The position numbers and the translations under genes are program-made. Shown piece after piece: positions 17,701-36,406 of a DNA stretch of 64,000 nucleotides. The notes beneath the pieces are model-generated. The model had not been told where the DNA came from, did no database searches, and worked only from the letters and a program-made list of their open reading frames with translations. Within the stretch, counting starts at the first letter, position 1. Each line of letters opens with the position of its first letter. The stretch is taken from positions 28,947-92,946 of IMG/VR virus record IMGVR_UViG_3300028384_000675, one strand, 5' to 3'. The stretch is from a virus.

Positions 17701-20700
17701 GGGTTGACAGAACGTAACGCTTGACTACTTTGGTTGTGCACATATCTGCTATCGAATCCGGTCGCGACAGTTTGACCGTCTCTTCGGAATCCAGTCAGAA
17801 CACCTGTTGTTGGATTTAGCGAAATGCCAGTTAAGAAGTTATCGTTAACTGTAACACTGACACTAGTGTCATCAGCAAGGTGTAATGTGATTGTGTCATC
17901 GCTGACTGTAAGAGGATTCGTTTCACGAAGAACCTGCTTTCCGCCCTTTATATCCTGTATCGTTGTTCTAATGGCATCGATGTCAGAGTCATTACCATCA
18001 ACTCTTAGGTCGAGCGATGCGATATCATCGTCGTTTCCTAGGATCCTAGTGCCTAGTGCCGAGTCAGCGAGTTGTAATGAAACGATATCGCCAAGAACAT
18101 CAACCAATACTGCAGAGTTTGAGTCCAGTCGATCTTCTGTGATTTCTATTCTTGAGATAACTGAATCAAAAGCAGTCAGGTTGTACAATGCGTTTGCTGC
18201 AATATCAGATTCTGCTGCTGTCATACGACCTTCAACTAAGTCGTGCTCACCGTGTAATTCGTTGATAGAAGGAATGATTACTTGGTTAACAGTGTCGAGT
18301 GGTCCAGACCCTAGTCTGCTCTGAAGATCTGCAACATCTGACTCGCCGACTGAGGTTCTTCCTTCAAGAGAATCTAAACGGTTCTCTGCTGAATCCATTC
18401 TCGGTTGAAGATCATCAAGAATATCTTCGGCGTCATCCATCTCCCCTTGTAGAGTACCGACGTCGGTATTCAGAGTTGATAGTATCGAAGAGTTATTCTC
18501 GATTAGTGTTTTGAGATCACTATCCGCGTCTCTGAACGCTTCAATGATTTCTAGGATTGTGTCCAGATCACCAGGAGCGCTGTCCAATAACCCATCAACT
18601 CTGCGGTTTACAGCGTCAATGTTAATTTGTAGTGCAGAGTCAGCATCATATCTCGTTTCCGCTTCTTGAGTTATGGCAGTACTGAGTTCAGAATCACGAA
18701 GAATTGCGCGTGCTATTTCCTGATCGATTAATATGTTGTTCGCTCGAATGTCTGTTGCATTCGAATCAATCATGCTGGTTAAATCTGCCTCGAGGTTGAT
18801 AGATCGACTTAGACCTGAATCAATCTGACTTTGTAAATCTTTCTCAACATCCAATGCACGATTCATTTCTGAGTCGATCAGGTCACTGAGAGTCTTGTTT
18901 ATATTCGTCAGTCGAGATGTTGCCGAATCGATTCCGCTCTGTAGATCGCCTTCGGCAAGAATGGCACGAGTAATTTCATCAGCGATAGAAGTTGAGTTAG
19001 AGTCGATTCTACTGAGGAGGTCTGACTCCAAATTCACAGACCGCTCGAGTCCTGAGTCAATCTGACTTTGTAACCTTGCCTCGACGCCCTGCGCCCGAGT
19101 CATCTCAGAATCAATGAGATCAGAAAGTGTACGATTGATGTTTGTTAGGCGAGTGGTCGCAGAGTCAATCGCATCTTGTAGACCTTCTTCTGCCAAAATC
19201 GCTCTGCCTATTTCTTCAGCGATAGAGGTTGCGTTTGAGTCAATTCTTCCTAGTAAGTCAGATTCAAGGGTGACTGAACGTTCGAGTCCTGAGTCGATCT
19301 GACTTTGTAGCCTTGTTTCAACATCAATCGCTCGGCGAGTCTCAGAATCAATTAGGTCGCTCAATGCTTTGTTGATGTCAGTGACTCTTGTAGACTCGGA
19401 GTCAATCAGATCTTGTAAATCGCCTTCCGCTTCAATTGCTCGTGCGATCTCGTCAGCGATAGAAGTTGAGTTAGAGTCGATTCTGCTGAGAAGGTCAGAT
19501 TCAAGGTTCAGCGTACGACTTAAACCTGAATCAATTTGACTTTGTAAAGATCCTTCTACTGCTAAAGCGCGAGTCATCTCAGAATCAATTAGGTCGCTGA
19601 GAGTTTGATTGATGTTGGTTAGTCTTAGTGATGCTGAGTCAATCAGATCTTGTAGTTCACCATCAACACGAATCGCTCTGGTAATCTCTGAGTCAATCGC
19701 TGCTGTGTTCGCATCAATATCGAGACGAATATCTGAGTCAGCGTTGATAGAAAGCGACAGACTCGAATCGATCAGATCTCGCAAGAAACGCTCTGCGTCA
19801 ATGGCACGACTCAACTCAGAATCAATAAGTCCTCTCAATTCTGATTCGGCATCTAGAGCACGGTTCATTTCTGAATCAATAAGACCATCCAGAGTTTGAT
19901 TGATGTTGGTTAGTCGCAGTGTTGCCGAGTCAATCTGACTTTGAAGATTACCTTCGACTCTGATTGCTCGTTGCGTTTCCGAGTCTATCATGCTGGTCAG
20001 GTCTGATTCTAAATTAAGTGTTCGACCTAAACCTGAGTCAATCTGACTTTGAAGGTTTCCTTCGATTCCGATTGCTCGTTGAGACTCAGAGTCGATCAGA
20101 TCACTGAGAGTCTTATTAATATTTGATAAGCGAGCAGTTGCTGAGTCGATTGCTGTTTCGGCATCATCCAGTCTGCTCTCTGCCGAGTCCATTCTTGCAG
20201 TCAGAGAAGTAACCTCTCCTGATCGCAATCCAATAATTTCGTTATCGGTATACGTGTTCGCTTCTTGTTTCGCTGTAGCAATACGGGAGGTAATTGTGTT
20301 TCCTGCTGTACCGTCTACAGTCGCGTCACCGATCATTAATGCATCGCGTTGACGAGTGTACAGTCGCGCAGCAGAAAGGGTAGCAGAGTCTCCTACCGCC
20401 CTGAGCGATTCCTCTTGCTCGATTCTATCAATCAGTTCTTCTCGGGCAGAATCAATGTTGCCTTGTAGGTCTTCTCCGACTGAGAGGCGATTTAAAACTT
20501 CTTGGTCAATTCTTGCATTGATATCAGAATCAGCAGCAGATCGTAGACTCGCTTCTGTATTGACACTTGTATTAATCGCGTCCTGTAAGTCAGAGTCTGC
20601 TGCTCTTCGCGCAGCAATTTCCTGATCAATTCGTACGCCAAGCGCGGAGTCACCTGCCAATCGCTCGCTCGTTTCGTCAGATACGCGAGTTGTGTTAGAT

Positions 20701-22550
20701 GAAACGAGTTGCCTTACATCGCTGTCGACTTCATTAAGATAGTTGACGATTTCAGTCAACGAGTCTATAGCAGCAGGATCTGTGTTGGTTATGACGTTAT
20801 TAATCTTGTCTTCGATACGCTGTTCTTCACCCTTTGCGCGCAGTTCTTCTGCGTCAATCTGTGCTCGTAGGTCAGAGTCTGCTGCGATTCTAGCAGAGTT
20901 TTCGATACCGACAGTGTTCGCTGCTTGCTGTATAGCATAGTCTCGTGCCGAGTCAATTCTTTCTACAACAGTGTTACCAGAAGTACCATCAATTGATGCG
21001 TCACCAATGAGTAGCGTGTCATGCGCCTTCGCGCTCGCGAGTGTATCCGAGTCGCCCTGATTAATTAAATCTGTCAAATCTTGGCGTAATGATTGCTCAT
21101 CAGCAAGACGAGAGGTTCTTTCGGAATCAAGCGAACTGGTTAGTTCTGACAGCGCATCGATACGTGCTGAGATTTCTGAATCAAGTCCAGTTTGTATATT
21201 TTCATTGTCATCAATTCTATCCGATCGTTCAGAGTCAAGTAAATCGAGCAGGTCTTCGATTGCATCAAGGCGGTTTGATGTTTCTGAATCAACTTTAGAA
21301 GAGAGATTAGAAATAGCAAGGGAAAGTGCTCTCGCTTCTGAGTCAAGGTTGCTTTGTACCGCAGCGTCACCTAAAATCCTTGCGCCGCGCTCAGAGTCGA
21401 TTAAACCTAAAAGATCAGCATCTGCTTGTATTCTATCTGCACGTTCTGAATCTAAGTTTGAGGACGCGCCTTGAATTGAGTTAATTCTGTCAAATCTTTC
21501 TGAGTCGAGTTCTGCCAATAAGTCTTCTATCGCATCGAAGCGATCTTCTTTTTCAGAATCCAGTTGCGCCAGTATGCTTTCGATTGCGTCAAGACGATCA
21601 TCTTTTTCTGAGTCAAGTCGCGAGATAAGGTCATTGATTGCTGCGAAACGATCGCTCTTCTCTGAGTCGAGATCGCCAGAAAGTGCACTAAGTGCATCTA
21701 TTCTAGCATTCGTTTCTGCTGTCAAATCAGAATCAAGGTTGGCGTCACCCTGTTGCCTTGCTGCTATTTCTATTTGTAACGCAGAGTCAAGGGAAAGGAT
21801 TGCTTCTTCGTTGGTTGAAACTCGATTAGTAAGCAACCCGAGATTGATATTTGTAAGATCAATTCTAGATGACAGATCAGTGTCAAGCGAAGCAACTGTA
21901 TTGGTGAGCGTTGTAATACCACCCTCGGCAACTCCCATACGAGAATTTAAATTGCTCAACGTTGAATTATTGTTGCCAATATCTCTGTTAACGTCAATCT
22001 TAAATTGATCAAACTCACCTTCTAATGATTCGAGGTTGTCGCTGTCAATGTTTAATCGTTCTACAAGAGGAAGGGTCGCTGTCGCAATTACATCGTTAAT
22101 AAATGCAGAGTCTTTTGAATAGATATCGTATCGCAGACCTTCGATTTTATCATTAAGTGCACCAACACCCATCTCTGCCATGGTGTCGACAACATAACCT
22201 CGGATCGCACCAGAGGTAGGAATCGTAGAGTCGAGCGTTAGAAAATCGTCAGCATTATCTACAATGCCATTTACTGTAACTTGTGTGACGTGATCGCGTA
22301 ATTTACCAAAACTTAATTCACCTGTCGCACGAACGTCTCCACCAACCTCAATATCATTATTGACGATCAGGTCTTGACTAACAACCGCATCATTACCGAC
22401 ATCGGTAACGTTCTTAACAGTGTCAGCAAATAAATTTTCCTTTCTTACTTTCTTGGTTCTGCCACCGTCGCTTGCATCGTTGACAATCAGGGTGTCTTTA
22501 TCACCAACCTGATCCAATTCTTGTAATTGCGATATTTTTACGTCTGTCAT
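11763..22550 (-). CDS. Giant tail fibre (3595 aa) with a C-terminal peptidase S74 intramolecular chaperone
   Basis: About 1500 aa of coiled coil, then many beta repeats ending in LDGRY. C-terminus SDEKLKENI...LRGVEFTWK...GVIAQDVEKVLP...VNY...IEAIKEQQEQIE is an S74 domain. Confidence 0.88.
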   Translation of the reverse strand: MTDVKISQLQELDQVGDKDTLIVNDASDGGRTKKVRKENLFADTVKNVTDVGNDAVVSQDLIVNNDIEVGGDVRATGELSFGKLRDHVTQVTVNGIVDNADDFLTLDSTIPTSGAIRGYVVDTMAEMGVGALNDKIEGLRYDIYSKDSAFINDVIATATLPLVERLNIDSDNLESLEGEFDQFKIDVNRDIGNNNSTLSNLNSRMGVAEGGITTLTNTVASLDTDLSSRIDLTNINLGLLTNRVSTNEEAILSLDSALQIEIAARQQGDANLDSDLTAETNARIDALSALSGDLDSEKSDRFAAINDLISRLDSEKDDRLDAIESILAQLDSEKEDRFDAIEDLLAELDSERFDRINSIQGASSNLDSERADRIQADADLLGLIDSERGARILGDAAVQSNLDSEARALSLAISNLSSKVDSETSNRLDAIEDLLDLLDSERSDRIDDNENIQTGLDSEISARIDALSELTSSLDSERTSRLADEQSLRQDLTDLINQGDSDTLASAKAHDTLLIGDASIDGTSGNTVVERIDSARDYAIQQAANTVGIENSARIAADSDLRAQIDAEELRAKGEEQRIEDKINNVITNTDPAAIDSLTEIVNYLNEVDSDVRQLVSSNTTRVSDETSERLAGDSALGVRIDQEIAARRAADSDLQDAINTSVNTEASLRSAADSDINARIDQEVLNRLSVGEDLQGNIDSAREELIDRIEQEESLRAVGDSATLSAARLYTRQRDALMIGDATVDGTAGNTITSRIATAKQEANTYTDNEIIGLRSGEVTSLTARMDSAESRLDDAETAIDSATARLSNINKTLSDLIDSESQRAIGIEGNLQSQIDSGLGRTLNLESDLTSMIDSETQRAIRVEGNLQSQIDSATLRLTNINQTLDGLIDSEMNRALDAESELRGLIDSELSRAIDAERFLRDLIDSSLSLSINADSDIRLDIDANTAAIDSEITRAIRVDGELQDLIDSASLRLTNINQTLSDLIDSEMTRALAVEGSLQSQIDSGLSRTLNLESDLLSRIDSNSTSIADEIARAIEAEGDLQDLIDSESTRVTDINKALSDLIDSETRRAIDVETRLQSQIDSGLERSVTLESDLLGRIDSNATSIAEEIGRAILAEEGLQDAIDSATTRLTNINRTLSDLIDSEMTRAQGVEARLQSQIDSGLERSVNLESDLLSRIDSNSTSIADEITRAILAEGDLQSGIDSATSRLTNINKTLSDLIDSEMNRALDVEKDLQSQIDSGLSRSINLEADLTSMIDSNATDIRANNILIDQEIARAILRDSELSTAITQEAETRYDADSALQINIDAVNRRVDGLLDSAPGDLDTILEIIEAFRDADSDLKTLIENNSSILSTLNTDVGTLQGEMDDAEDILDDLQPRMDSAENRLDSLEGRTSVGESDVADLQSRLGSGPLDTVNQVIIPSINELHGEHDLVEGRMTAAESDIAANALYNLTAFDSVISRIEITEDRLDSNSAVLVDVLGDIVSLQLADSALGTRILGNDDDIASLDLRVDGNDSDIDAIRTTIQDIKGGKQVLRETNPLTVSDDTITLHLADDTSVSVTVNDNFLTGISLNPTTGVLTGFRRDGQTVATGFDSRYVHNQSSQALRSVNPITVDNDTITLHLADGNTAQVTVDDSDVNNFVNNLTFNSSDGVLTASRSGLPDLNVTLDGRYQPTGNYVTTNSAQALDPTNPITVLNDTITLNLADGNSVQVTVNDNYLTGVGFNTTTGLLTAYRNDAGLVTISLDGRYVEQTSAQALHPTNALEVNDDTITLYKADGTFESHSIIDAIGTDYFITGLSFNTSSGTLIGSRNDGNTVSTNFDGRYVNQNSVQALRANTPLTISGDTITLHRADGTSISVDIDDEFYPDDQTLSWNASSGELTISDGNTVDIDGRYTQTTSAQVLRSTNAIAVNNDTITIYKGDGTSESVTISDANTNTYITSLALSTDGELTIGRNDGGSFTVDLESHFVDKAGPQALHPTDALRSSGDTIYLYKGDGTREAVTIVDNNDFITGASFTGGTLSLTGSGSAGASVSLDGRYQPVGNYVTTTSAQALHPTNALEVNDDTITINKADGTSESHDISDALGTDYFITGLSFNTSNGVLTGTRNDGNSVTAGLDGRYDNYSNWKLTDGSSTESISSGETITVSGGDNVTTTLSTSTNTLEISAENDFVTGASFSNGTLSLTGTGDAGASVSLDGRYVEQTSPQALRATNPLTVNNDTITLHLADGTTDEVTISDANTNFYINAATFNGGTLSLTGVGAAGASVNLDGRYVPNDGVQALHSTDALRISGDTIYLYKGNGTYESVTFDDEHYHYQNLSFSGGHSGTGVLSISNGNSVDLDGRYVHQTSSQALPVGAALAVNNDTITLTRADGTVESVTISDANTNTYTTSFVFNDVNGVLSIGRNDGGNFSVDLDDRYVHSQSPQLLRTTNPLTVSGDTITLHMADGSTDAVTIDDDFFPNQNLSWNGANGQISISGGNTIDIDGRYQPAGDYVTTSHVQALHPTDALQVNNDTITLKRADGTTESVTISDAIGTDYFVTGISFNTGNGVLTANRNDGQTLTTDFDGRYVEQTSPQALRASNALTVSDDTITIHKGDGTSESVTISDYFEYDDQTLSWNGTTGKLTISDGNTVDLDGRYLLQGTYDNYVSWSLSDGSTSQEVTSLDLIKVVGGTNVTTSLNTTDNQLTISATDTNNYLSSVSWNASTDEITFGRNGLSSLSVDLGLAERFDKYDRWKISDGTNHEYIYSNDTLKVVGSGDVSTTYTASTNTLSIGSTNTYVDGASFNSSNDVLTLSRHSMSDVTVDLGLTERFDKYTSWTITDGTHDEAVTSGQSVKFEGAGAASTTYYAASNTLRITSTDTNDFITGASFSTGTGILSLTGTGGAGASVDLDGRYLLQGTYDNYVSWNLKNGSTTEAVTSGETIEFAGSGASSVSYNATSKKVTISSTDTNNYVNSASFSGGVLALGGVGAAGASVSLDGRYQLAGSYDNYNHWKVKVGSNNTDNIYSGNTLKFLSGGATSLGYNAETNTVTISSTDTNTDTNYYVDGASFNDTNGILTLSRAGLGDVTVDLDGRYATSNTDTTYDLYASTSANIDGAAITLDPSTGTSDQVWLKGGNNVSVSRVSSNQINIASTDTNNYVSSASYSAGSGKLTLHRAGLSSIDVTIGSNSNNYLDGASFNTGNGELTLSRSGGMSNVVVDLDGRYSTTDTNTTYSQATSSTLGLVKIGYNENGQNYPVELSNGQMYVNVPWTDTNTDTNTNRLTTFTVEDGDGTAVTMSHGKRFKFVEAAASVSGSSNYINMNWVDTSPGSTGDPYDLAISHNKTDRTNTTNSTSPGYSGSFTVVDNITTNPEGHITAVNTKTVSLPAAASGGSTDYINAASFNTGSGVLSLTGTGSAGASVDLDGRYYIRGDHIDLNDDKKVQFGTGDDYEISFDGSHLYIHQNQVSTNDIYISDVANANKFFFNVSTGDFHADGDIIAYSNSVSDEKLKENITVVENAVDKVQQLRGVEFTWKKDGEKSAGVIAQDVEKVLPQAVKEKDIMGEGEVVKTVNYDTMSALFIEAIKEQQEQIEALKAEIKALKG

Positions 22551-24010: not shown

Positions 24011-24937
24011 TTAGTCAATAATAGTGAATGTTCCACCCATATTTTGATGCAATTGGCACTTATACTCATAACTTACACCCGACACTGGGGTGAATGAGAC
24101 ACTACCAGTTTCCGTTGGATCAGCAATGAGGACATTATTATCGTCAACGATCATAAACGGATGACCAGAAGTGTTTACATTAAACGTATATTCTGTTCCA
24201 GAAGTAAGGTCTAGTGATGGAGCTTCCACACCATTCAAATAGAACTTACCGTTAGAAACTGTCACGTTAAATGTCGTAACTTCTGGTTCTGGATCAGGTG
24301 CCGATTCAACCGTAAAGTCAGAAGTCGTTGTCGTAGCATTACCATTCGCATCAGTCGCAGTAAATCTCATTGAGAACGAAGTCGCTTCACTTCCTGGTGT
24401 TACTGTGAATACATTATCAGACTGGGATACTGTAGCGCCGTTGAGTGCGGAAGAAGCAGAAATTGCAGTAACTGAAACACCGAATTGATCGCCCCCAGAA
24501 CCATCAAACGCAGTTAGTTTGGTTGGTTGAGCAGATAGATTGTTTGCGTCATAGACGTAGACTGAACCAGTGTAAGAATCGTCATAATACGCACCAACGA
24601 CGATCTTATCAGCAGTAGCAGCAACTGATATACCGAACTGATCGCTAGCAGCGCCATCAAACGCTGTTAGTTTAGTCGGTTGAGCAGATAGATTGTTGGC
24701 ATCATAGACATAAACTGAACCCTTAGTGTCGTCACCATATGCACCAACAACGATCTTATCACTAGAAGCAGCAACTGAGTGTCCAAAGAGATCATTCGCA
24801 GCACCATCAAATGCTGTTAGTTTCGTTGGTGTTGCAGATAGATTGTTGGCGTCAAAGACATAGACTGAACCAGATTGAGTTCCATTGTCATCGTCAGCTT
24901 GTGCGCCAACAATGATCTTGTCAGCAGTAGCAGCAAC
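24011..24937 (-). pseudogene. In-frame 3' remainder of the giant FG-GAP gene beyond TAG-TAA: last blades, half Ig domain and cupredoxin-like domain
   Basis: After FG-TAG-TAA the same frame continues VAATADKIIVGAQADDDNGTQSGSVYVFDANNL... without stops into ORF 24011..24370 (36406-24370 = 12036, divisible by 3). Confidence 0.85.
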
Positions 24938-24940
24938 TTA

Positions 24941-27900
24941 CTAACCGAAGGAATCAAAAGAAGCACCATCAAACGCAGTTAGTTTAGTCGGTTGAGCAGA
25001 TAGGTCATTGGCGTCATAAACATAGACTGAACCATTGAAATCGTCACCATTTGCACCAACGACGATCTTGTCGGAAGAAGTAGTAATTGAATATCCGAAT
25101 TTATCATTCGCAGCGCCATCAAATGCAGTTAGTTTAGTTGGTTGAGCGGATAGATTGTTGATGTCATAGACATAGACTGAACCAGTGTAAGAATCTTCGC
25201 CGTATGCACCAACAATGATCTTATCAGCAGCAGTAGCAATTGAGATGCCGAAGAAATCGCCCGCAGCACCATCAAATGCTGTTAGTTTAGTTGGTGTTGC
25301 AGATAAATTATTGGCGTCATAGACGTAGACTGAACCAGACTGAGATCCATTGTCATCATCTAGGCGTGCACCAACAATAATCTTATCAGCAGTAGCAAAA
25401 ACATTCTCTCCGAAGCAATCACCTGCAGCAGCATCAAACGCTGTTAGTTTCGTTGGTGTTGCAGACAGATTGTTGGCGTCATAGACATACACTGAACCGG
25501 AACTAGATCCATTGTCGCCGTCACCCCATGCACCAACAACGACATAACTTGATCCTGACGCTACTTCCTCATAAGACCATGTAATCGCATCGCCTTCTGG
25601 ATCAGTACCAACTGCAGTAATTGCTGTTCCGCTTCCACCTGCTGTCAGCAGATATGAAGACTCAATACCAGTCACCGATGGTGCTTGGTTGACATATGTA
25701 AAGTCAAAGTCAGATGACACTGACGTTACATTACCTTCTGAGTCAGTCGCCTTAAAGGTCAACTGGAAGTCAGCGTCCTGTTGACCAGGAGTTACTGTGA
25801 ACACGTTATCAGATTGCGCAACGGTTACATCACCGAGTGGACTAGGTGCAACAGATCCAACTGCGTTAAATCCAAAGCTAATGCTAGTACCAGTTCCCGC
25901 AGGTGGATTTACTAATTCTGGTGCTGCCGATAAATCGCTCAGGATGTAAACATACATACCACCAGTACTCGCGTCTTTTCTGTGAGCAGAAGAATATAAC
26001 TTATCGCCAATTATGGTTGTGTTATATCCTAGCATTGCACCTGTTGCTGGAGATTCCAATACTGTCGGAGCAGCAGAAAGGTTGTTTATGTTATAAACAT
26101 AAATAGCACCTGCTGATGAGTTTCTTTGGTGTGCCCCGACGAAAAGTTTATCTTCGTGTGGAAGAACAGACATACCAAAGTAATCTCCTTCAGCAGCATC
26201 GAATGCTACAAGTTTCTCAACAAAGGATAAGTCGCTTTCGTTGTACACGTATACAGCACCACCACTAGTACCGTTCGAATTATGGTCCGCAGTCACAGCA
26301 GAAATATAGATCTTACCCCCATAAGTTTTTATTGAGTATCCGCCAAATCTGTCAGACTCAGACGCATCTGGCGCAGTTAATTTCTGTACGAATGCATAAG
26401 TATTGACATCGTAAACATAAACTGCTCCAGCATCAGTACTATTGTCGTCGTCTCCCATCGATCCAATCAAGATATGATTAGATGTTACTGTTATACCTCC
26501 GCCAAGTCCAAAATAGTCGCGATGATCGCCGTTGGTAGGAGTTAATGTTGCCTGAAGCGAAAGGTCAGATTTGTTGTAGATATAGACTTTTCCGGTATAA
26601 TCATCATTACTGTTCGTTGTTGGTCCCCATCCATATGCTCCAATGATCAATAAGTCGTCAGTGACGGAAATTCCGCTTCCGAATCGAAGGTTATTCTGCG
26701 CTTCGCCAGTAAGCATGGTCGGCGCGGCAGAAAGGTCGCTTCTATCGTAAATATAAACCGCTCCGCCCCAGGTTTCATCCGATTCATCTGACATCATCTC
26801 ACCTATGTAGATTTTGTCGGAATCAATTTCCATTGAAAATCCAAATCGTTCTGCTGATGAACCGTTCGGCGCAGTAAGCAATGTTGGTTCCTCTGTCAAA
26901 TCAGTTGGATTATATACATACACATAACCCTGATAACTATTAGATTGTATCGCAGAAACAAATAACTGATCTTGTGACGTGGATGACACTGCCTCATACG
27001 ACCATGTAACCGTGTCACCTTCTGGGTCAGTTGCCGCAGCAGTGATCACAGTGCCCTGACCTTGAGTCAGAGTATATGTTGAGTCAATACCAGTCACCGA
27101 TGGTGCTTGGTTAACATAGGTCAACGAGAAGTCTGCATCTCTGGTATCCGTATTTCCTGCTGTATCAGTGAGGGTGAATCGTATCGTGAAGTTTGCATCA
27201 GCAGTTCCTGGTGTTACTGTGAATTCGCCGCCATTTTGCGTTATAGCAGTTCCGTTCAAACCAGAAGGAACGCCTCCGTTCAAGACTTCTGCAAACGACC
27301 AAGTAACAGCGTCGCCGTCAGCGTCAGATGACATACCAACGATCACCTCGTCTACACCCTGAGTCAGCGTATACACAGATTCAATACCTGTGATCACTGG
27401 CGCAGCATTATAGTCAAAGGTGATGTCAGAGGTCGCAGTAGTCGCTGCACCGTTTGTATCAGTTGCCGTAAAGGTCAACTGGAAGGTAGCATCTTGATCC
27501 CCAGGAGTGATTGTGAACACGTTACCCGCCTGAGTTACTGTTGTACCTGAAAGGTCGCCAGAAGTTACTGCGTAAGTCAACGAAACAGTATCACCGTCAG
27601 AGTCTGAAGTTGTTACTGTGATCTCAGTATCTTGACCTTGATCCAGCGTATACGAAGAATCAACGCCAGTTATTGATGGCGCGTCATTATAGTCTAGTGT
27701 AAACTCAGAATCGAAGTTTGTCTGGTTTCCTGACTCATCAGTTGCAGTAAAGCGCAACGTGAAGTTAGCATCCTGTTGTCCAGGAGTTACTGTGAAGTCA
27801 TTACCGTTCTGCGTTACAGTAGTTCCGTTCATACCAGAAGGAACACCCTCGCCTAGAACTTCTTCGTAACTCATAGTAACTGTTTCGCCTTCGGCATCAG

Positions 27901-30900
27901 ATACTACAGGAACGATTACTTCGTTAACGCCCTGAGTCAATGTATACGCAGGTTCAATACCGCCGAGTGACGGTGCTTGATTCACGTATGTAAAGTCAAA
28001 GTCAGATGTTGTAGAAGTCACATTACCGTTTGAGTCAGTCGCCTTAAAGGTCAACTGGAAAGTAGCATCCTGTTGTGCAGGTGTTACTGTGAAGACATTG
28101 TCAGATTGTGTTACAGTGACACCGTTGAGTTGCGAAGATAGATTATTTGCAGAAACTGAATAACCGAAATAATCTGCTCCTGCGCCATCATATGCTGTTA
28201 GTCTGGTCGGTTGAGCAGAGAGATCATTTATATCATAGACATAAACTACTCCAGTATATGTACTACCAGGACCGCCGTATGCTCCGACAATGATTTGTTC
28301 AGACGTTACCGCAAGACCAGTGCCGAACATATCAGTCGCAGCACCATCAAACGCTGTTAGTTTCGTTGGTTGAGCAGACAGATCGTTTGCGTCAAAGACA
28401 TAAACTGATCCAGATTGCGCCCCTCGGTCATCATCAGCATATGCGCTCACAACTACCTTATCAGAACTTATAGCAACGTGTTGCCCGAACATATCGCTCG
28501 TTGCCCCATCGTATGCTGTTAGTTTCGTTGGTGTCGCAGAAAGATCGTTCGCGTCATAGACATAGGCAGTGCCTGTATTGCTATTATCGCCCCTCGCTCC
28601 GATAACGACCTGACTAGAGGATGCTTCGATTGATATTCCAAACATTTGGTTTTCTGAAGCATCCGGAGATACCAACTTAGTTGGTTGAACAGAAAGGTCT
28701 GACTTATCGAAAACGTATACCGCTCCAGAATTATTTCCGTGATCGTCATCAAACGATCCGACTAATATCTTATCAGCAGTCGTAGCGAATCGATATCCGA
28801 AGTTATCACTCACAGCGCCATCATATGCTGTCAACTTAGTTGGTTGTGCATTAAGGTTATTTATGTCAAAGACATAAACTGCACCGGCATAAGTTGCCTC
28901 TTGATCATCCCAAGAATTTCCGACAATAATTTGATCTTCGGTAACTAGAACACGTTCTCCGAACCTTTTATCTCCTGCTTGATTATGCATATCATATGCT
29001 GTCAGTTTTGTTGGAGTAGCAGAAAGGTTGTTCAAATCGTACACGTAAACTGAACCAGAGTTAGGTTGCCCATCATCATCACCATATGATGTTACAGCTA
29101 ATATATTAGAATTTAAAGAAGAATGCCTGCCGAAGGAATCACCCGCAGCACCATCAAACGCAGTTAGTTTCGTTGGTTGGGCAGATAGATTATTCGCGTC
29201 AAAGACATAAACTGAACCAGAATTAGACCCGTTGTCATCGTCTCCTGCTGCTGACACAACCACATAATTCGTACCAGAGATTACTTCCTCATAACTCCAT
29301 GCGATCGCATCACCTTCTGGATCAGTTCCGACTGCAGTGATCACAGTGTCCTGACCTTGAGTCAACGTGTAAGCAGACTGGATTCCAGTCACCGATGGCG
29401 CTTGGTTGACGTAAGTAAAGTCAAAGTCAGAAGTTGCTGAAGTTGCGTTACCTTCTGAGTCAGTCGCAGTAATGCGTAACTGGAAGTCAGCATCAGCAGT
29501 TCCTGGCGTTACTGTAAACACGTTATCAGATTGTGTTACAGTGACACCGTTGAGTTGTGAAGGAGCAGAAACTGCAGCGACTGCCCAACCGAAACGATCG
29601 TCGTAAGCAGCATCAAATGCGAACAACTTAGTTGGTGCTGCTGATAGATCGTTTCTATCATAAACCCATACTGACCCATTTCTGCCATCGTCCATATTGG
29701 CGCCAATTACAATACTGTCTTCATTTATAGAGATATCTTGTCCGAAGTATTCGGATTCAGTATCGCCATCATCAGGTGCCGTGAGTTTTGTTGGAGCAGC
29801 AGAAAGATCGCTAGTATCATAGACATAAACTGCGCCTTGATAAGCATTACCATTTTCTGATTTTCTTTCTGCACCAACTACAAGAGACCCATGACGTGCA
29901 TCGACCCGCTCTCCAAAGTAACTATTTGACGTTAAATCTGACTCAGTAATAATTGTTGGCGCTGCTGATAGATCACTCAGAGCGTAAGCAAAGACTGCAC
30001 CTTTTCTACCATTATATCCCATGGCACCAACGTAAAGATTAGTGTCATCAGAAGCGAGGTAACAACCTAACTGTAAGTAATCTGTACCATCTTCGAGTTT
30101 TGTTGGTGCTGCTGATAGATCGCTCAGAGAATATACATAAACTGCTCCGTGATTATAAGAACCATGTTGTCGGCAACCAACATAAACATTATTGCTGTCT
30201 ATGTGTACAGCTCTTCCAAATTGATCAGAACTACCGCCATCAGGTGTAACCAACTTGGTAGGAGTTGCACCTAAATTAGAAGCGTCATAGACATAAACTG
30301 CACCGGCATTAGTCGTTTTTGTATCGTCGTTGATTGCAGAGACTACTACATGCGTTTCAGTTGCTGAAATTGCCCAACCCACATTGTCAGACGCAGTTGA
30401 TGGTGATAGTATTGTTGGTGCTGCTGATAGATCGCTTAAATCATAGACGTAGGCGCTACCAAAATTGTTCCCTCCGGTGTCATCGGAATAAGCACCAACG
30501 TAAAGTTTAGTGCTAGTCATAAACATACTCGCACCATAATTGCCGGAAACTGGTGATAATTTAGTTGGTCGAACAGATAAATTGTTAGCATCATAGACAT
30601 AAACTGAACCAGAGTTAGTTCCGTGAACGTCATCGAGCGGTGCACCAACAGCAATATAACTTGATCCAGACTTAACTTCTTCGAACGACCATGTAATCGC
30701 GTCACCTTCTGGATCAGTTGCCGCAGCAGTGATCACAGTATCCTGACCTTGAGTCAGCGTGTAAGCAGACTGGATTCCAGTGACGGTTGGCGCTTGGTTG
30801 ACATAGTCGAAGTTGACCGTTGCTGGTACAGTTGCCGTGTTACCGTTTGAGTCAGTCGCCTTGATGTTCAATGTAAACGAAGCATCCTGAGTTCCTGGCG

Positions 30901-33900
30901 TTACTGTGAACACGTTATCAGACTGTGTTACAGTAGTTCCGTTGAGTGCAGATGATAATACATTATATTCATTAACATTCTTAGAGTCATTGTAGTCCGC
31001 AACAAAAACCTTACCAGATCCGAAACCTATACCCAACTCAGAATAATTATATGAGTATTCAGATGGATTGTATGATCCTGCTAAAGCATTTGTACTTAGA
31101 TCATATATCCTCATCTCACCAGAATTATGATTCAGTATCAAATATCCATCAGAGACAGATATCTGTTCAGATATCTGACTACTAGAATATGAAACTACAT
31201 CAGAGAGTCTATTTCCAGTGGTAGCATCGTATACGAAGATGGTTCTTTGGTCCGAAACATAAATCTTATCGTTCGAAATCTCAACATCCGCTATCTCATT
31301 AACTCCATCGAAATCGATTCTAAATGAACCATTTTGATAATCTGTGATGTCTGGATATACAGTTAAGTGTTTTCCATATGAACTCTTGCTAGCCACTACA
31401 ACCTTATTCTCTTCGGATACTATAACTTCTCCCCATTTAGCATATTCTACAGCACCTTGTGGATCAGCAATCCATCCATCTATTTCAGCATATGTGTTTT
31501 TGTCGTAAATACGAATTGCACCAGATTGGTTTCCTGATTGATGTCTCCCATGAGCACCAACAACAATTCTATCGGTTGTCACAGTGACAGCGAAACCGAA
31601 TTTTTCACCGTTAGATCCAGATGGGTTGTAGATTGATTGGAGTTTATTACCATTCAGGTCTGCAATCACAATACCACCTGCTTGGGTTCCGCCTGTAGGC
31701 GCTAATTGCTCCCCGCCGCTGACAACAATATCGTCCCCAAAGGCAATTGAAGCGCCTAAAAACTGAGATCCGGATGTCGAATCAGGTTCTATTCTATTAA
31801 TCAATTGTCCTGTTTGATGATTGAACAGGAATACTGCTCCTCCATAACTACTATATCCAGTATTACTGATCGCAACGATATCACCGCTTACTTTTACCGT
31901 CTTCCCTGGGCGATCAGAAGACCCCGGATCTGCAAATTTATATGGTGCATAACTGTTTCGAACGAACGATTCAGAAGTTAGAGAAACAGATAGTTGCTCC
32001 TCGAACGACCATGTGATCGCATCACCTTCTGGATCAGTTGCAGCAGCAGTGATCACTGTATCCTGACCCTGAGTCAGCGTATATGCTGCGTCAATACCAG
32101 TAACGGTTGGAGCGAAGTTATGCGCTCTTGCGTCTGCTGTATCATACATTGCAAGAGAAGATCCCAAGAATGCGCGATTAGTTGGATTAGACTGGTGAAT
32201 TGTATTCAGTAGATTACCGCTCATGTCGTATACACGGAGTTCACCAGAAGAAGTCTCTGCTGCATTCTTACCGTAGTCGCCGACAACGATTCTGTTGTTT
32301 GCAACAGAGATTCGAGTGTTGTTGGTAGATGCGATCTTTTGCATATTCGATCCATCAAGGTCGAAGATGTAGAAGTGAGCGGCGTTATCTGAACCGACAA
32401 CAACCTTCTCATGTCCAATTGCGAGACCAGTACCGAAACGGGCAACACTTGTAAGTGCTGGATCGTAGAGTCTTACCTCATTAGATCCATCGAGGTCATA
32501 AAGATAAACCGATCCAGCGAAACTGTTGATTGATCCGCCGTCAGCGATAAACGCAGTAACTGCAATTTTTCCGTTACCAATAGCGATCTCATAATCGCCG
32601 AATTGATCGCTTTCAGTCTGACCATCTGTAGCAGAAATTGTATTTATGAACGTTCCCTGCATGTCATAGATATAAACCTGACCTGAATCTGTAACACCGT
32701 CAGCATCTGCCATTGGAGCGCCGACTACGATTCTTCCATGACCCGCAGCAACTTTCCAACCGAATTTGGTCCAACCGTTCTGACTTCCTGCTCCTGGTAA
32801 TCCAGCAGAAGGTTCAGTAACTTTAATTTCGTTTGAACCATCCAAGTCGTAAATGTAGAATTCCCCTAGTCCAGAACCGCCTTCATAAGTACCGACGATA
32901 ATCTTCCCATCGCTGATTGCGACTGATGTACCGAATAGGGTACTAGGTGCCGAAGGAGTTATCTCTATTGGTTCGTTTGTAGTTGCGAGATCGTATACGA
33001 AGACTCTCTGTTCAGTTCGTTGACCAACAACGAGGATTGTACCGTCGATTGCCATGTTTTCGTCAGCACCGAACTGAGAATCATTATCCATACCTGCTGG
33101 GATGAACAATTCTTTCTCGTTTGATCCGTCAAGGTCAAACGCATACAATTTGTTCGAGTAGTTGTTATTTGATGCTGCTGCAATAATTCTTCCAACAGAA
33201 GTATCATTAACAACTGGTACCGGAATCTCATAATCGAACGTTGGTGTGACCTTAGTAGAATTGCCTTCTGAGTCAGTCGCCTTGATGTTCAATGTAAACG
33301 AAGCATCCTGAGTTCCTGGTGTTACTGTGAATACGTTATCAGATTGTGTGATAGTGACACCGTTGAGTGCAGACGAAGAAACATACCCTACCATATTGTC
33401 ACTAAATGCAACATAAGTATTTGACCCAGAGATTTGATGCGATGTTCCTTGCCCAGTATAGAGATATGTACCAGAACTTAAATCCGCAAAGTCATATACA
33501 TACAATTTTCCGGTGTTATTATTCTCAGTCTTGTCTCCAACAAAGAGTCTATCTCCTGATACGGCAAGATCTGAACCGAATTCATAACCCGTATTGGAAG
33601 GTTTGTATATGATTGCTGGATTGGCACTCAAGTTATTCCTATCGAACACCCATACGCTTCTATCACTTTCTTTCTGGACTATTACATGATCAGAAGAAAG
33701 TGCAACACTTCTACCAAATTTAGCGCTTCTAATAGCAAACAAAGGTACAGATATTGGCGCTGCAGACAAATTTTCAGTATCGTAAATATACGCTGCTCCG
33801 GAGTTTGCCTGAGATCCATTATATTCAAACGGTATACCAACGACAAAATGCGTTCCGAAAGCGGCAATGGAACAGTCTTGTAAAGTTGCAGACGCATTTA

Positions 33901-36406
33901 GTACTGTTGGAGACGCAGATAAATCGTCAAGGTCATATACGACCAAAATTCCATAACTTTGACCTGACGCAGTCGACTGCGAACAGATCAACTTATTACC
34001 CGAAACGACGATATTTTCACCAAAATCACGATTCATTGCAGAATTTGGCGAAGTTAGTACTGTCTTGTTAACAGTATACGGATCGACGGTACCAGAACCT
34101 AAATCATTCAGATCAAATACCCATATTGCACCGCGATTGTTTGTTAATGATGGATGACCTACAATTAGGTGATTATCTGTAATTGCAATTGATTCTGCAG
34201 TAGATTGATACTGTATTTCAACTTCATGGGTAGATAAATCATTTAGGTCATATATTCTTATTGAATTACCACGCTTTCCTGCTAATTTACCGCCGCCAAC
34301 AGTCATCATTATCAGAGGATCTTGAATGGTTTCGATTAGTTCCATTGTAGACGGGTTGTACAAATATGTGTCGTAACTGCTTTTAACAAAAACGCCTGAT
34401 CCCAGTACTTCTTCGAACGACCATGTGATTGCATCGCCTTCTGGATCAGTTCCGACTGCTGTGATCACAGTATCCTGACCTTGAGTCAGTTCATATGTTG
34501 AGTCAACGCCAGCAATTACTGGTGGTTGATTGACATATATGATGTTAGTTGTTACAGATGTTGTGTTGTCTTCAGTGTCAGTCGCAGTAATACGCAAGTT
34601 GAAATCTGCATTTTTCATTTCTGCTGTTGGTGTCACTGTAAACGTGTTATCAGATTGCGTGATAGTGACGCTGCTCGCTGGAGCAGTGTTTGCTGAAACT
34701 CTAATTCCAAAGAAATCCCGATATCCACCATCGAATGCTGTTAACTTGGTTGGTGCTGCGGATAGATCGTTTAGATCATAAACATAAGTCGAACCGGCTT
34801 GATTTTCACTATAACTCGATCCGACGATAACATGATCGTCAGTTATCGCAACATCTGATCCGAAAAATTCGAATTCAGAGTCGCCGTCATCTCCCACATA
34901 CAATTGAGTCGGTTGAGCAGAAAGGTCGCTTAGGTCAAAGACGTAAACAGCACCTTGATACACTTGTCCATCCATTGTTTTTCTATGGGCAGCGATTACA
35001 GCAAAATTTTCGTTCGCTACAATCCTATCTCCGAAGTTGTCTCGACCATGACTAGTTGGTGGAGACGATCCATCAAACGCTGTTAGTTTCGTTGGTTCGG
35101 CAGAAAGGTCGTTTAGGTCATAGACATAAACTGCACCAGTATCGATACCTAGATCGTCGTCACCCACGGCGCCAACAAACAATTTACTGCTTGTCAATTC
35201 AATGTCGGCACCAAATTGGTGCGCGGCACCAGTGTACTGGTTTGTCAACAAATCACTTGGCACGATTTCAGTTGGAGCGGCAGAAAGATCGTTTATATCA
35301 TAAAGGTATACTATACCTTCGTCGACGGTGGGATTCCCAGCATCGTTTGTTCCATCCACCCTAGACACGCCGACAGCAAGATAACTTTCGTTCAAAGACA
35401 TATATTCTCCGAACTTATGTTGATTGCCGCGCGGATCTTCGAGTATCTTAATTGGATCAGCAGACAAATCATTCAAGTCGTAAACATATACAGCACCTTT
35501 GGATCCATTTGACGTACTGATATACCCATCGAACGCACCAACCACAAGTTTGTTACTATTGACAGCGATACGCTTTCCAAATACAGTCCACTCTCCTTGA
35601 TCAGGTGGAACTATTTTTATTGGATCAGCAGAAAGGTCGCTGGTGTCATAAACATAAACTGCGCCGCCGGCACTGAGACCGGAGTCAGTTTTGACATAAG
35701 AACTAATGAAAAGTCTTTCAGGAGTAACTAAAACGTCGCCCGCACCAAACTGATCACTCGCAGCACCATCAAATGCTGTCAACTTAGTTGGCGCTACAGA
35801 TAAATTGTTTGCATCATAGACATAAACTGCACCAGCGTTAGATCCTTTATCATCGTCACCACTTGACGTTACAACTATATAACCGCCGCTTCTAAGTTCT
35901 TCGAACGACCATGTGATCGCATCACCTTCTGGGTCAGTACCAACTGCAGTAATTACGGTGTCCTGACCATATGTCAGATTGTAAGTAGATTGGATTCCAG
36001 AAACGAATGGTGGGAAGTTGATCATCAATTCTGGTTGGAATGATATTGAATCGATTACGTAATCATTCTTACCGTACCAACCAGTGTGGAATTTAAGGTC
36101 TGGATTGTAGTCTGCTGCGGTAGGTCGCATTGATACTGTATCGAGATCAACCGAATCCTTACCATAAATTCCAGTGTGGAATTTAAGGTCTGGATTATAT
36201 GTGGCGTCCGTTGGTTGTAACGATATTGAATCGATTACATAACCGTCACCCTTACCATACCATCCAGTGTGGTATTTTAAATCTTCATTATAATCTGCGG
36301 AAACTGGTCTAATCGAAGTTGTAACGACTACGACTTCCTCTATCTCTGCTTCAAACCAGCTTTGCTTACTTCCTGCTAATGCCGACGTTAGGTGTCTAAA
36401 GCGCAT
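24941..36406 (-). CDS. Giant virion adhesin-like protein: cadherin/Ig-like domains carrying FG-GAP beta-propellers (3821 aa to the first stop; ~4130 codons in total)
   Basis: Many repeats of KLTAFDGAA.D.FG.SVA....IVVGA..DD...GSVYVYD, plus NQAP.V.GI...TDPEGDAITWS / TVTQSDNVFTVTPG...F.L...ATDS.GN domains. Confidence 0.88.
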   Translation of the reverse strand: MRFRHLTSALAGSKQSWFEAEIEEVVVVTTSIRPVSADYNEDLKYHTGWYGKGDGYVIDSISLQPTDATYNPDLKFHTGIYGKDSVDLDTVSMRPTAADYNPDLKFHTGWYGKNDYVIDSISFQPELMINFPPFVSGIQSTYNLTYGQDTVITAVGTDPEGDAITWSFEELRSGGYIVVTSSGDDDKGSNAGAVYVYDANNLSVAPTKLTAFDGAASDQFGAGDVLVTPERLFISSYVKTDSGLSAGGAVYVYDTSDLSADPIKIVPPDQGEWTVFGKRIAVNSNKLVVGAFDGYISTSNGSKGAVYVYDLNDLSADPIKILEDPRGNQHKFGEYMSLNESYLAVGVSRVDGTNDAGNPTVDEGIVYLYDINDLSAAPTEIVPSDLLTNQYTGAAHQFGADIELTSSKLFVGAVGDDDLGIDTGAVYVYDLNDLSAEPTKLTAFDGSSPPTSHGRDNFGDRIVANENFAVIAAHRKTMDGQVYQGAVYVFDLSDLSAQPTQLYVGDDGDSEFEFFGSDVAITDDHVIVGSSYSENQAGSTYVYDLNDLSAAPTKLTAFDGGYRDFFGIRVSANTAPASSVTITQSDNTFTVTPTAEMKNADFNLRITATDTEDNTTSVTTNIIYVNQPPVIAGVDSTYELTQGQDTVITAVGTDPEGDAITWSFEEVLGSGVFVKSSYDTYLYNPSTMELIETIQDPLIMMTVGGGKLAGKRGNSIRIYDLNDLSTHEVEIQYQSTAESIAITDNHLIVGHPSLTNNRGAIWVFDLNDLGSGTVDPYTVNKTVLTSPNSAMNRDFGENIVVSGNKLICSQSTASGQSYGILVVYDLDDLSASPTVLNASATLQDCSIAAFGTHFVVGIPFEYNGSQANSGAAYIYDTENLSAAPISVPLFAIRSAKFGRSVALSSDHVIVQKESDRSVWVFDRNNLSANPAIIYKPSNTGYEFGSDLAVSGDRLFVGDKTENNNTGKLYVYDFADLSSGTYLYTGQGTSHQISGSNTYVAFSDNMVGYVSSSALNGVTITQSDNVFTVTPGTQDASFTLNIKATDSEGNSTKVTPTFDYEIPVPVVNDTSVGRIIAAASNNNYSNKLYAFDLDGSNEKELFIPAGMDNDSQFGADENMAIDGTILVVGQRTEQRVFVYDLATTNEPIEITPSAPSTLFGTSVAISDGKIIVGTYEGGSGLGEFYIYDLDGSNEIKVTEPSAGLPGAGSQNGWTKFGWKVAAGHGRIVVGAPMADADGVTDSGQVYIYDMQGTFINTISATDGQTESDQFGDYEIAIGNGKIAVTAFIADGGSINSFAGSVYLYDLDGSNEVRLYDPALTSVARFGTGLAIGHEKVVVGSDNAAHFYIFDLDGSNMQKIASTNNTRISVANNRIVVGDYGKNAAETSSGELRVYDMSGNLLNTIHQSNPTNRAFLGSSLAMYDTADARAHNFAPTVTGIDAAYTLTQGQDTVITAAATDPEGDAITWSFEEQLSVSLTSESFVRNSYAPYKFADPGSSDRPGKTVKVSGDIVAISNTGYSSYGGAVFLFNHQTGQLINRIEPDSTSGSQFLGASIAFGDDIVVSGGEQLAPTGGTQAGGIVIADLNGNKLQSIYNPSGSNGEKFGFAVTVTTDRIVVGAHGRHQSGNQSGAIRIYDKNTYAEIDGWIADPQGAVEYAKWGEVIVSEENKVVVASKSSYGKHLTVYPDITDYQNGSFRIDFDGVNEIADVEISNDKIYVSDQRTIFVYDATTGNRLSDVVSYSSSQISEQISVSDGYLILNHNSGEMRIYDLSTNALAGSYNPSEYSYNYSELGIGFGSGKVFVADYNDSKNVNEYNVLSSALNGTTVTQSDNVFTVTPGTQDASFTLNIKATDSNGNTATVPATVNFDYVNQAPTVTGIQSAYTLTQGQDTVITAAATDPEGDAITWSFEEVKSGSSYIAVGAPLDDVHGTNSGSVYVYDANNLSVRPTKLSPVSGNYGASMFMTSTKLYVGAYSDDTGGNNFGSAYVYDLSDLSAAPTILSPSTASDNVGWAISATETHVVVSAINDDTKTTNAGAVYVYDASNLGATPTKLVTPDGGSSDQFGRAVHIDSNNVYVGCRQHGSYNHGAVYVYSLSDLSAAPTKLEDGTDYLQLGCYLASDDTNLYVGAMGYNGRKGAVFAYALSDLSAAPTIITESDLTSNSYFGERVDARHGSLVVGAERKSENGNAYQGAVYVYDTSDLSAAPTKLTAPDDGDTESEYFGQDISINEDSIVIGANMDDGRNGSVWVYDRNDLSAAPTKLFAFDAAYDDRFGWAVAAVSAPSQLNGVTVTQSDNVFTVTPGTADADFQLRITATDSEGNATSATSDFDFTYVNQAPSVTGIQSAYTLTQGQDTVITAVGTDPEGDAIAWSYEEVISGTNYVVVSAAGDDDNGSNSGSVYVFDANNLSAQPTKLTAFDGAAGDSFGRHSSLNSNILAVTSYGDDDGQPNSGSVYVYDLNNLSATPTKLTAYDMHNQAGDKRFGERVLVTEDQIIVGNSWDDQEATYAGAVYVFDINNLNAQPTKLTAYDGAVSDNFGYRFATTADKILVGSFDDDHGNNSGAVYVFDKSDLSVQPTKLVSPDASENQMFGISIEASSSQVVIGARGDNSNTGTAYVYDANDLSATPTKLTAYDGATSDMFGQHVAISSDKVVVSAYADDDRGAQSGSVYVFDANDLSAQPTKLTAFDGAATDMFGTGLAVTSEQIIVGAYGGPGSTYTGVVYVYDINDLSAQPTRLTAYDGAGADYFGYSVSANNLSSQLNGVTVTQSDNVFTVTPAQQDATFQLTFKATDSNGNVTSTTSDFDFTYVNQAPSLGGIEPAYTLTQGVNEVIVPVVSDAEGETVTMSYEEVLGEGVPSGMNGTTVTQNGNDFTVTPGQQDANFTLRFTATDESGNQTNFDSEFTLDYNDAPSITGVDSSYTLDQGQDTEITVTTSDSDGDTVSLTYAVTSGDLSGTTVTQAGNVFTITPGDQDATFQLTFTATDTNGAATTATSDITFDYNAAPVITGIESVYTLTQGVDEVIVGMSSDADGDAVTWSFAEVLNGGVPSGLNGTAITQNGGEFTVTPGTADANFTIRFTLTDTAGNTDTRDADFSLTYVNQAPSVTGIDSTYTLTQGQGTVITAAATDPEGDTVTWSYEAVSSTSQDQLFVSAIQSNSYQGYVYVYNPTDLTEEPTLLTAPNGSSAERFGFSMEIDSDKIYIGEMMSDESDETWGGAVYIYDRSDLSAAPTMLTGEAQNNLRFGSGISVTDDLLIIGAYGWGPTTNSNDDYTGKVYIYNKSDLSLQATLTPTNGDHRDYFGLGGGITVTSNHILIGSMGDDDNSTDAGAVYVYDVNTYAFVQKLTAPDASESDRFGGYSIKTYGGKIYISAVTADHNSNGTSGGAVYVYNESDLSFVEKLVAFDAAEGDYFGMSVLPHEDKLFVGAHQRNSSAGAIYVYNINNLSAAPTVLESPATGAMLGYNTTIIGDKLYSSAHRKDASTGGMYVYILSDLSAAPELVNPPAGTGTSISFGFNAVGSVAPSPLGDVTVAQSDNVFTVTPGQQDADFQLTFKATDSEGNVTSVSSDFDFTYVNQAPSVTGIESSYLLTAGGSGTAITAVGTDPEGDAITWSYEEVASGSSYVVVGAWGDGDNGSSSGSVYVYDANNLSATPTKLTAFDAAAGDCFGENVFATADKIIVGARLDDDNGSQSGSVYVYDANNLSATPTKLTAFDGAAGDFFGISIATAADKIIVGAYGEDSYTGSVYVYDINNLSAQPTKLTAFDGAANDKFGYSITTSSDKIVVGANGDDFNGSVYVYDANDLSAQPTKLTAFDGASFDSFG

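Follow-up and report, generated by a model that had tools for sequence, protein, structure and literature searches.

Adhesins of T4-type phages are mosaics in which variable stretches that set specificity are separated by conserved structural motifs. Glycine-rich motifs of the T-even gp38 flank hypervariable segments, and gp37 shows conserved-motif shuffling (Trojet et al. 2011, PMC3157838, citing Tetart et al. 1998). Exchange of specificity segments between phages is proposed to proceed through the conserved motifs, and crosses have demonstrated this for gp38. Here we describe a giant gene on the minus strand of a 64,000-nucleotide (nt) stretch of viral DNA (IMG/VR record IMGVR_UViG_3300028384_000675, positions 28,947 to 92,946; the whole stretch analyzed, herein the window), which derives from a 92.9-kb contig. 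The gene encodes repeated cadherin-like domains, which we call sockets, and β-propellers nested in one socket loop, which we call cassettes. In gp38 the variable units are short loops of one small domain, whereas here the unit is a nested domain of 345 to 404 amino acids (aa), of which one chain can hold nine or more. That T4-type adhesins combine conserved motifs with exchangeable segments is already known; whole-domain cassettes in a socket array are not described in the literature searched. A Pfam scan of the protein listed no T-even gp37/gp38 family, and no direct gp37/gp38 sequence comparison was made.

Domain nesting is also used by integrins, in which an α-I domain is inserted in a loop of the propeller, and fibers of phiKZ-like jumbo phages (gp131; PDB 4GBF) carry a terminal β-propeller, one per chain and not nested. 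The cassettes are predicted to share the seven-bladed FG-GAP propeller fold of the integrin α head (PDB 4wjk, 7p2d); here, however, the propeller is the guest and the cadherin-like sandwich the host, and the protein is viral, multiheaded, and without a β-subunit partner. The CDHL (Big_9) modules of the staphylococcal adhesin SraP (PDB 4m00) are tandem stalk modules with the fold predicted for an empty socket; they match it end to end without a large insert, whereas in the window gene the loop holds a whole domain. Our literature search found no paper on propellers nested in repeated sockets, either cadherin-like or fn3.

We consider it probable that the gene encodes a giant virion-surface fiber of a marine T4-like (Kyanoviridae-like) phage, in which whole propeller heads are exchanged by homologous recombination via an array of sockets. 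A complete seven-bladed propeller would be nested in one loop of most of the tandem cadherin-like domains; because the ends of the propeller are adjacent, the host domain could close around it, and the chain would display a row of independent heads. The socket halves, being conserved, provide the sole homology between otherwise unrelated cassettes. Homologous recombination at these halves could involve relatives infecting the same cell or different sockets of a single gene; it would swap, duplicate, insert, or remove entire heads without disturbing either the reading frame or the fold.

Domain anatomy and predicted folds

The gene is a single minus-strand reading frame (36406..24011; 12.4 kb, 4131 codons) with one in-frame TAG-TAA break: an open reading frame (ORF) of 3821 aa (24941-36406) is followed by the tandem stops and then by 308 open in-frame codons to 24011. 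Domains were parsed using motifs and half-domain hidden Markov models. The motif of the N-terminal socket half (N-half), [ST]D..G[DE]..[WLM][ST][FY].., occurs 10 times, as does that of the C-terminal half (C-half), TVTQ..N.FTVTP (9 by regular expression plus the variant AITQNGGEFTVTP); the N-half ends in ...TWSFEE and the C-half begins with S.LNG.TVTQSDNVFTVTP. Seven sockets are filled, with 345 to 404 aa between the halves, and three consecutive sockets (aa 2809-3102; nt 27101-27982) are empty, with halves 2 to 7 aa apart; a purely motif-based count gives other spacings, of about 351 to 410 aa and 8 to 13 aa, respectively. One extra propeller (aa 1065-1429) separates a C-half from the N-half that follows. 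This parse bears out an earlier note, made from the window alone, which had described about ten cadherin/Ig-like domains, seven of them split at one loop by a propeller, with one further propeller between domains and three consecutive empty domains at ∼27120 to 27980. Its count of eight heads stands as seven nested propellers plus the interdomain one, and depends on the TAG-TAA within the last head being bypassed.

Pfam FG-GAP_2 (PF14312) matches 27 stretches of the 3821-aa ORF (expect value [E] 6e-235; 760 bits, cut-off 23) and 4 further stretches of the 308-codon tail. Asp-rich loops (DDDNG and similar), candidates for the Ca2+-binding hairpin loops (DxDxDG-like) that FG-GAP propellers carry on their lower face, recur ahead of the VYVYD strand. 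Big_9 (PF17963) matches the empty domain at aa 2907-2996 with 30.3 bits (cut-off 23.6).

The filled unit of socket 4 (aa 1870-2337) was modeled with AlphaFold2 using an 18-row alignment, giving a predicted local distance difference test score (pLDDT) of 91 and a predicted template modeling score (pTM) of 0.87. Its residues ∼45 through 413 superpose on the integrin α5 propeller 4wjk_A (Z 37; root-mean-square deviation [rmsd] 2.5 over 335 residues), and the top 11 matches of a fold search are all integrin α chains; the search with the whole filled unit returns propeller matches only and says nothing on the socket part. The cassette is predicted from this model to be a seven-bladed FG-GAP propeller of integrin-α type. 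The empty socket 6, modeled with a pLDDT of 94, matches the cadherin-like module of SraP, 4m00_A (Z 10.6; rmsd 1.7 over 86 residues; 23% identity), and cadherin EC domains (Z 8.5 to 8.9), while a BFVD search with it returned generic Ig-like matches only. These matches point to a cadherin-like/Big_9 β-sandwich as the predicted fold of the socket.

In the empty-socket model, strands span residues 5-7, 12-15, 21-23, 26-28, and 35-41 and, after a loop at 42-54, residues 55-59, 62-66, 72-82, and 87-96. In the filled unit the first five of these strands recur ahead of the propeller and the last four behind it, with the insertion loop between the fifth and sixth model strands. The flanking halves form one contiguous domain without the insert in the three empty copies here and in one in P0091, with linkers of 2 to 7 residues. 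The earlier note had supposed that the split domain refolds around its insert; the confident model of the filled unit, its strand pattern equal to that of the empty socket, and the natural empty copies all agree with this, and no sign that the halves belong to different domains was found.

Folding the halves as separate chains gave a complex score of 0.45 (best control 0.01), weak support for their contact; in calibration, 58 of 80 solved complexes attained that mark, as did 2 of 110 mismatched pairs, and scores of 0.60 or below covered 7 of the 80 solved complexes and both passing mismatches. The separate-chain runs show contact agreement of at least 97% and a partner pLDDT of at least 77; similarity to Ig-like folds already solved may account for the pass.

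Cassettes and sockets among related genes

A profile of the unit matches 72,628 proteins because FG-GAP propellers are common; this socket is carried by only a handful of them (Table 1). P0153, P0155, P0184, and P0229 were used as proteins only, and P0223 (3472 aa) is a relative in the P0153 cluster, at least 90% identical. L003 and L008, each assembled from the same sample, represent the same phage (1 nt difference in 5538), and thus are not independent. For phage C48C1, our literature search found no phage paper. The number and the order of cassettes both differ among orthologs, with 2, 7, 7, or at least 9 filled sockets, a variability that is read directly from the sequences, as are the anatomy, the homology breakpoints, and the near-identical cassettes in different sockets. 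The socket is not propeller-specific, as P0057 (ENA metagenome, 1113 aa) has a 127-aa nonpropeller insert in the same loop (residues 567 through 786). Cyanophage S-TIM5 (NC_019516.2, 159352-160575; L035) encodes a lone 407-aa FG-GAP propeller, ∼31% identical to the window cassettes and annotated as "virion structural protein and packaging".

Comparison of the window gene with L003/L008 reveals colinear DNA blocks at gene nt 1-2001 (82%), 3034-4410 (88.7%), and 8277-9122 (85.6%). The first block stops at the last codon of the socket 2 N-half (the WSFEE codons); the second starts at the first codon of the socket 2 C-half (SALNG) and stops at the end of the socket 3 N-half; the third runs from the first residues of the socket 5 C-half to the end of the socket 8 N-half. 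Socket 2 has 88% aa identity to L003 and its cassette 31%; the socket 3 N-half has 88% and its cassette 25%. More broadly, the N-halves of sockets 1-3 are 88 to 98% identical in aa to L003/L008 and the C-halves of sockets 1-2 71 to 81%, and orthologous sockets at 88 to 98% carry cassettes at 25 to 34%. Across the full length of the gene, L008 has just two propellers in common with the window at 75% or more; cassette 1 is 75% identical in aa to cassette 1 of L003/L008, and the interdomain propeller, a type also present in P0229, is 90% identical. The comparative breakpoints lie at or inside the socket halves, which would put the crossovers in conserved parts, as in gp37/gp38.

Sockets 6 and 7 have L008 orthologs at 93 to 96% and 78 to 95%. 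Socket 10 of L008 was considered as a filled ortholog of the empty socket 8 and rejected, as the socket 8 N-half has just 54% aa identity to its L008 counterpart; no strict pair of an empty and a filled orthologous socket was found.

The same cassette also occurs in different sockets. The terminal socket of L005 and socket 6 of L004 have in common a tract of 1130 nt with zero mismatches, which starts in the ITWSFEE codons and ends just ahead of the TV.QSDNVFTVTP codons, and the L005 flanks of the tract resemble socket 7 of L004 (93.7% and 91.7%), not socket 6. With a background divergence of 7%, 1130 mismatch-free nt are not expected by chance (0.93^1130 by our arithmetic). At one end of the tract the identity fades gradually, like the edge of a conversion tract. 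The cassettes of L008 socket 2 and the L004 terminal socket are mostly 96 to 100% identical in DNA (with windows of the comparison down to 84%), and the identity drops to 62 to 82% in the surrounding socket halves; this cassette type is also terminal in P0021 and P0229. Among more distant matches, the socket 9 cassette is 79% identical in aa to the last cassette of P0153, the sockets themselves being 72% identical, and a cassette matching that of socket 3 at 60% identity or more is found in the sixth socket of P0229.

Separate phylogenies of sockets and cassettes are incongruent. The terminal sockets of four phages form one clade (100/99 support) that carries three cassette types, and approximately unbiased (AU) tests reject congruence both ways (socket tree, p 0.0007 and 0.028; cassette tree, p 8e-6 and 5e-7). 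A fixed cassette order with congruent trees, which would have spoken against the earlier note, was not what we observed; its proposal that conserved flanks act as recombination arms for swapping, adding, or deleting cassettes gains support from the breakpoints, the shared cassettes, and the tree incongruence. T4-type phages replicate through recombination, and the annotation of C48C1 includes a UvsY-like mediator; given tracts that end inside socket halves, the sockets may thus be read as de facto recombination arms, which may have been selected for that role or simply kept by the needs of folding.

Within the window gene the DNA of the sockets is less alike than the earlier note had stated. 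The 37-nt degenerate pattern it placed at ∼35900, 34415, 32000, and 30680 has four exact matches (30682, 32002, 34414, and 35902; chance expectation 0) and one additional match with 3 mismatches. Its N positions are third-codon positions, so protein conservation accounts for much of the pattern. The exact match of ∼50 nt at ∼33270 and ∼30850 is the longest exact repeat (51 nt at 30848/33269, in the C-halves of sockets 3 and 2), and the next ones (32, 32, 30, 29, and 29 nt) likewise fall within sockets. The term "near-identical" was nevertheless an overstatement, as pairwise DNA identities are 41 to 85% for N-halves and 35 to 79% for C-halves. Propellers are divergent, as the note had it, with a median within-gene aa identity of 32% (22 to 61%) for cassettes and 69% (54 to 84%) for sockets, though the blades of the last propeller are alike. 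In that propeller (type A, 24425-25655) the blades are ∼80% identical in DNA with a two-blade period of 312 nt (families D2, D6, and D14), which suggests recent blade-level duplication or conversion inside this cassette.

Genomic setting and competing explanations

The window genes match structural genes of T4-like, Kyanoviridae-type phages. On the minus strand, baseplate hub and wedge genes, a DUF4815 giant gene, and gp13/gp14/gp15-like neck/sheath-stabilizer genes are followed by a 152-aa ORF, the propeller gene, a 429-aa ORF, a 3595-aa fiber, and a 1067-aa fiber. The propeller gene is thus placed within the late structural block, downstream of the gp13/14/15-like genes and upstream of the long fiber genes; in L004 it has the same placement, after a gp15-like gene and before fiber-like genes. 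The 3595-aa neighbor (11763-22550, minus strand) ends in a C-terminal Peptidase_S74 intramolecular chaperone. It was considered as a second gene of the same architecture and rejected, being an S74-chaperone fiber of different build.

Table 1. Features of the propeller gene in the window, relatives that carry the socket, and the Dehalococcoidia loci
Feature	Position	Strand	Details
N-terminal region, aa 1-129	36020..36406	-	MRF(R/K)HL(T/N)SA peptide and three ~30-aa repeats
Socket 1, filled	34520..36019	-	N-half 35897-36019; cassette 34685-35896 (404 aa); C-half 34520-34684
Socket 2, filled	33215..34531	-	N-half 34409-34531; cassette 33374-34408 (345 aa); C-half 33215-33373
Interdomain propeller, aa 1065-1429	32120..33214	-	Between socket 2 C-half and socket 3 N-half
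Socket 3, filled	30788..32119	-	N-half 31997-32119; cassette 30953-31996 (348 aa, most divergent); C-half 30788-30952
Socket 4, filled, modeled unit	29396..30799	-	N-half 30677-30799; cassette 29561-30676 (372 aa); C-half 29396-29560
Socket 5, filled	27971..29407	-	N-half 29285-29407; cassette 28136-29284 (383 aa, common type A); C-half 27971-28135
Sockets 6, 7, 8, empty	27677-27982, 27398-27688, 27101-27409	-	Halves joined by a 2-7-residue linker
Socket 9, filled	25679..27112	-	N-half 26990-27112; cassette 25844-26989 (382 aa, type G); C-half 25679-25843
Socket 10, terminal type, filled	24296..25690	-	N-half 25565-25690; cassette 24452-25564 (type A, stop-interrupted); C-half 24296-24451
Tandem stops TAG TAA	24938..24943	-	Take the place of two residues after FG, mid-blade, in the last propeller
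C-terminal domain	24011..24295	-	~94 aa and stop codon; PHROG 677/708 match
Phage C48C1 CDS0129			2 filled sockets
P0153 / P0223			7 filled sockets
L004 (= P0154)			7 filled sockets
P0229			7 filled sockets; one interdomain propeller
L008 (same phage as L003)			At least 9 filled sockets; two empty sockets, one interdomain propeller
Dehalococcoidia loci L009-L024, e.g., P0156	OZ252295.1 812199-827443		Proteins of 4000-5000 aa

The N-terminal region, presumed to be the virion attachment end, is 89% identical in aa to that of L003; its ∼30-aa repeats are spaced by 90 to 93 nt (repeat family D16), and its first 10-residue peptide is common to all relatives (C48C1 CDS0129, P0153/P0223, P0229, and L003/L008). 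In the relatives this region can be as short as 15 aa (P0153) or as long as ∼740 aa, then including an extra propeller (L004 and P0229). At the other end, the last domain of the protein aligns only with the C-terminal portions of two profiles, PHROG 677 (baseplate wedge tail fiber connector; E 5.7e-7) and PHROG 708; a search of PDB sequences found no relative (best E 0.51). This match, the gene context, and the annotation of the S-TIM5 propeller are compatible with a putative protein of the virion. C-terminal regions vary in length among relatives (about 94, 232, 293, and 364 aa). The domain has a His ... Cys-x2-His-x2-Met pattern, which we take to be reminiscent of cupredoxin copper sites.

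The tandem stops are a feature of the window copy. The L004 copy is uninterrupted, the known part of the L005 gene is open to its own stop, and P0229 continues via its terminal socket into the C-terminal region. No tRNA gene was found in the window or the 92.9-kb contig, and so no suppressor tRNA is present there.

Several points weigh against a socket array with exchangeable receptor-binding heads. Since TAG-TAA interrupts the last head, the window's own allele may be truncated. Every relative but C48C1 is a metagenome assembly, in which repeats invite mis-joins, and the groups for the AU tests were picked after viewing the identity matrices. Arms within the window gene are merely 41 to 85% identical, with exact stretches of no more than 51 nt, and codon identity at conserved socket residues (0.5 to 0.8) gives no sign of DNA homogenization beyond protein constraint. 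Contact of the two halves in the filled unit is deduced from the pTM, the strand pattern, the empty copies, and the weak complex score. Receptor binding and virion placement are both drawn from sequence and context.

We think it unlikely, though worth serious attention, that architecture and exchange are real while the heads are not binders of host receptors, serving instead as decoration that sticks to particles, mucus, or nonhost surfaces (Hoc-like) or in another structural role. Eight or more different heads per chain would be unusual for a host-range determinant, two conventional long fiber genes lie nearby (3595 aa with the S74 chaperone, and 1067 aa), and one allele tolerates TAG-TAA. 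On the other hand, rapid turnover of cassettes while the backbone stays conserved is what host-driven diversifying selection should produce, the gene sits among tail and fiber genes, and FG-GAP propellers are the ligand-binding heads of integrins, to whose α chains the cassette has its fold match. From these integrin-type heads, the fiber-gene neighborhood, and the fast cassette turnover we infer an adhesin role with receptor-binding heads; most likely, the heads bind host or environmental surface ligands.

It is improbable that the shuffling is an artefact of assemblers jumping between co-occurring strains or repeats at sockets. All of the mosaic evidence comes from short-read metagenome contigs, L003 and L008 do not count as independent, and public sequencing runs offer little relief: the best hold at most 20% of the sampled words, as short Logan contigs, which on this gene break at sockets and have many unreliable joints with short sides at 90% likeness. 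However, the flanks of the identical 1130-nt tract are 6 to 8% diverged from L004, so that L005 is not simply L004 re-threaded, and at the borders of the tract the two phages share exact words of ∼21 nt or less, which is short for a mis-join at the final k. The difference between the window and L008 consists of cassettes wholly absent from the other gene, not re-ordered ones. P0153 and P0223 share their architecture and come from a total of four contigs, P0184/P0227 from two; the deposited complete genome of C48C1 has the nested design, and the same nesting, with fn3 domains as hosts, occurs in Dehalococcoidia records titled single chromosomes.

Very improbable is tandem duplication of whole units only, with fast propeller divergence, sockets under purifying selection, and no cassette movement: although the six type-A cassettes of P0153 cluster, and its sockets largely do too, as in-gene duplication predicts, although the ∼80% identity of blades in the last window propeller points to recent local duplication, and although socket and cassette identities correlate weakly (Spearman 0.38), duplication and divergence alone are insufficient for identical cassettes between diverged flanks, as seen in the mismatch-free tract between flanks of 55 to 92% identity and in the cassette that L008 has in socket 2 and L004 in its terminal socket, nor do they fit the divergent cassettes of closely related orthologous sockets or the AU tests. 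Exchange by homologous recombination is the process we infer from the breakpoints.

Parallel nesting in Dehalococcoidia and implications

Nesting of this kind is also found outside phages. Among 229 retrieved proteins, 56 have fn3 domains split by an insert of 300 to 520 aa, and the inserts inspected in P0156 are FG-GAP propellers. Most of these fn3-split proteins come from megabase-scale bacterial contigs, with P0156 and its relatives in metagenome-assembled genomes of Dehalococcoidia. In the Dehalococcoidia giants, 6 to 7 fn3 domains are each split at one loop by a FG-GAP_2 propeller of ∼390 to 440 aa, and 7 to 8 fn3 domains are intact. They thus resemble the window gene in having FG-GAP_2 propellers nested in one loop of a repeated β-sandwich but differ from it in that the host domain is fn3 rather than cadherin-like and the proteins are cellular, not viral. 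Our literature search found no paper describing these giants.

Nesting in both phage cadherin-like domains and Dehalococcoidia fn3 domains makes propellers in β-sandwich loops a recurrent design. We hold only tentatively, as a possibility still open to doubt, that socket arrays are a general evolvable display scaffold, used in parallel by marine T4-like phages, whose cadherin-like sockets hold propellers or other inserts, and by Dehalococcoidia with fn3 sockets, and serving in the phage as a multivalent, re-assortable host-range organ. On such a scaffold the repeated β-sandwich would keep fold and DNA homology constant while whole binding domains are swapped by recombination. The presence of the same nesting in abundant Dehalococcoidia surface giants, undescribed in the literature searched, suggests that the design is broader than phages.

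T4-type phages are known to change host range by shuffling short variable segments that conserved motifs flank. The unit of exchange in the phage gene would be a complete folded domain in the loop of another domain, with many per chain and the same head occurring naturally in different sockets. With insertion point, linker residues, and homology arms defined, the array offers a design rule for the engineering of phage and protein display. If the heads bind receptors, the protein would be a natural multihead adhesin whose set of specificities could be re-dealt by single recombination events, which would bear on phage-host dynamics in the ocean.

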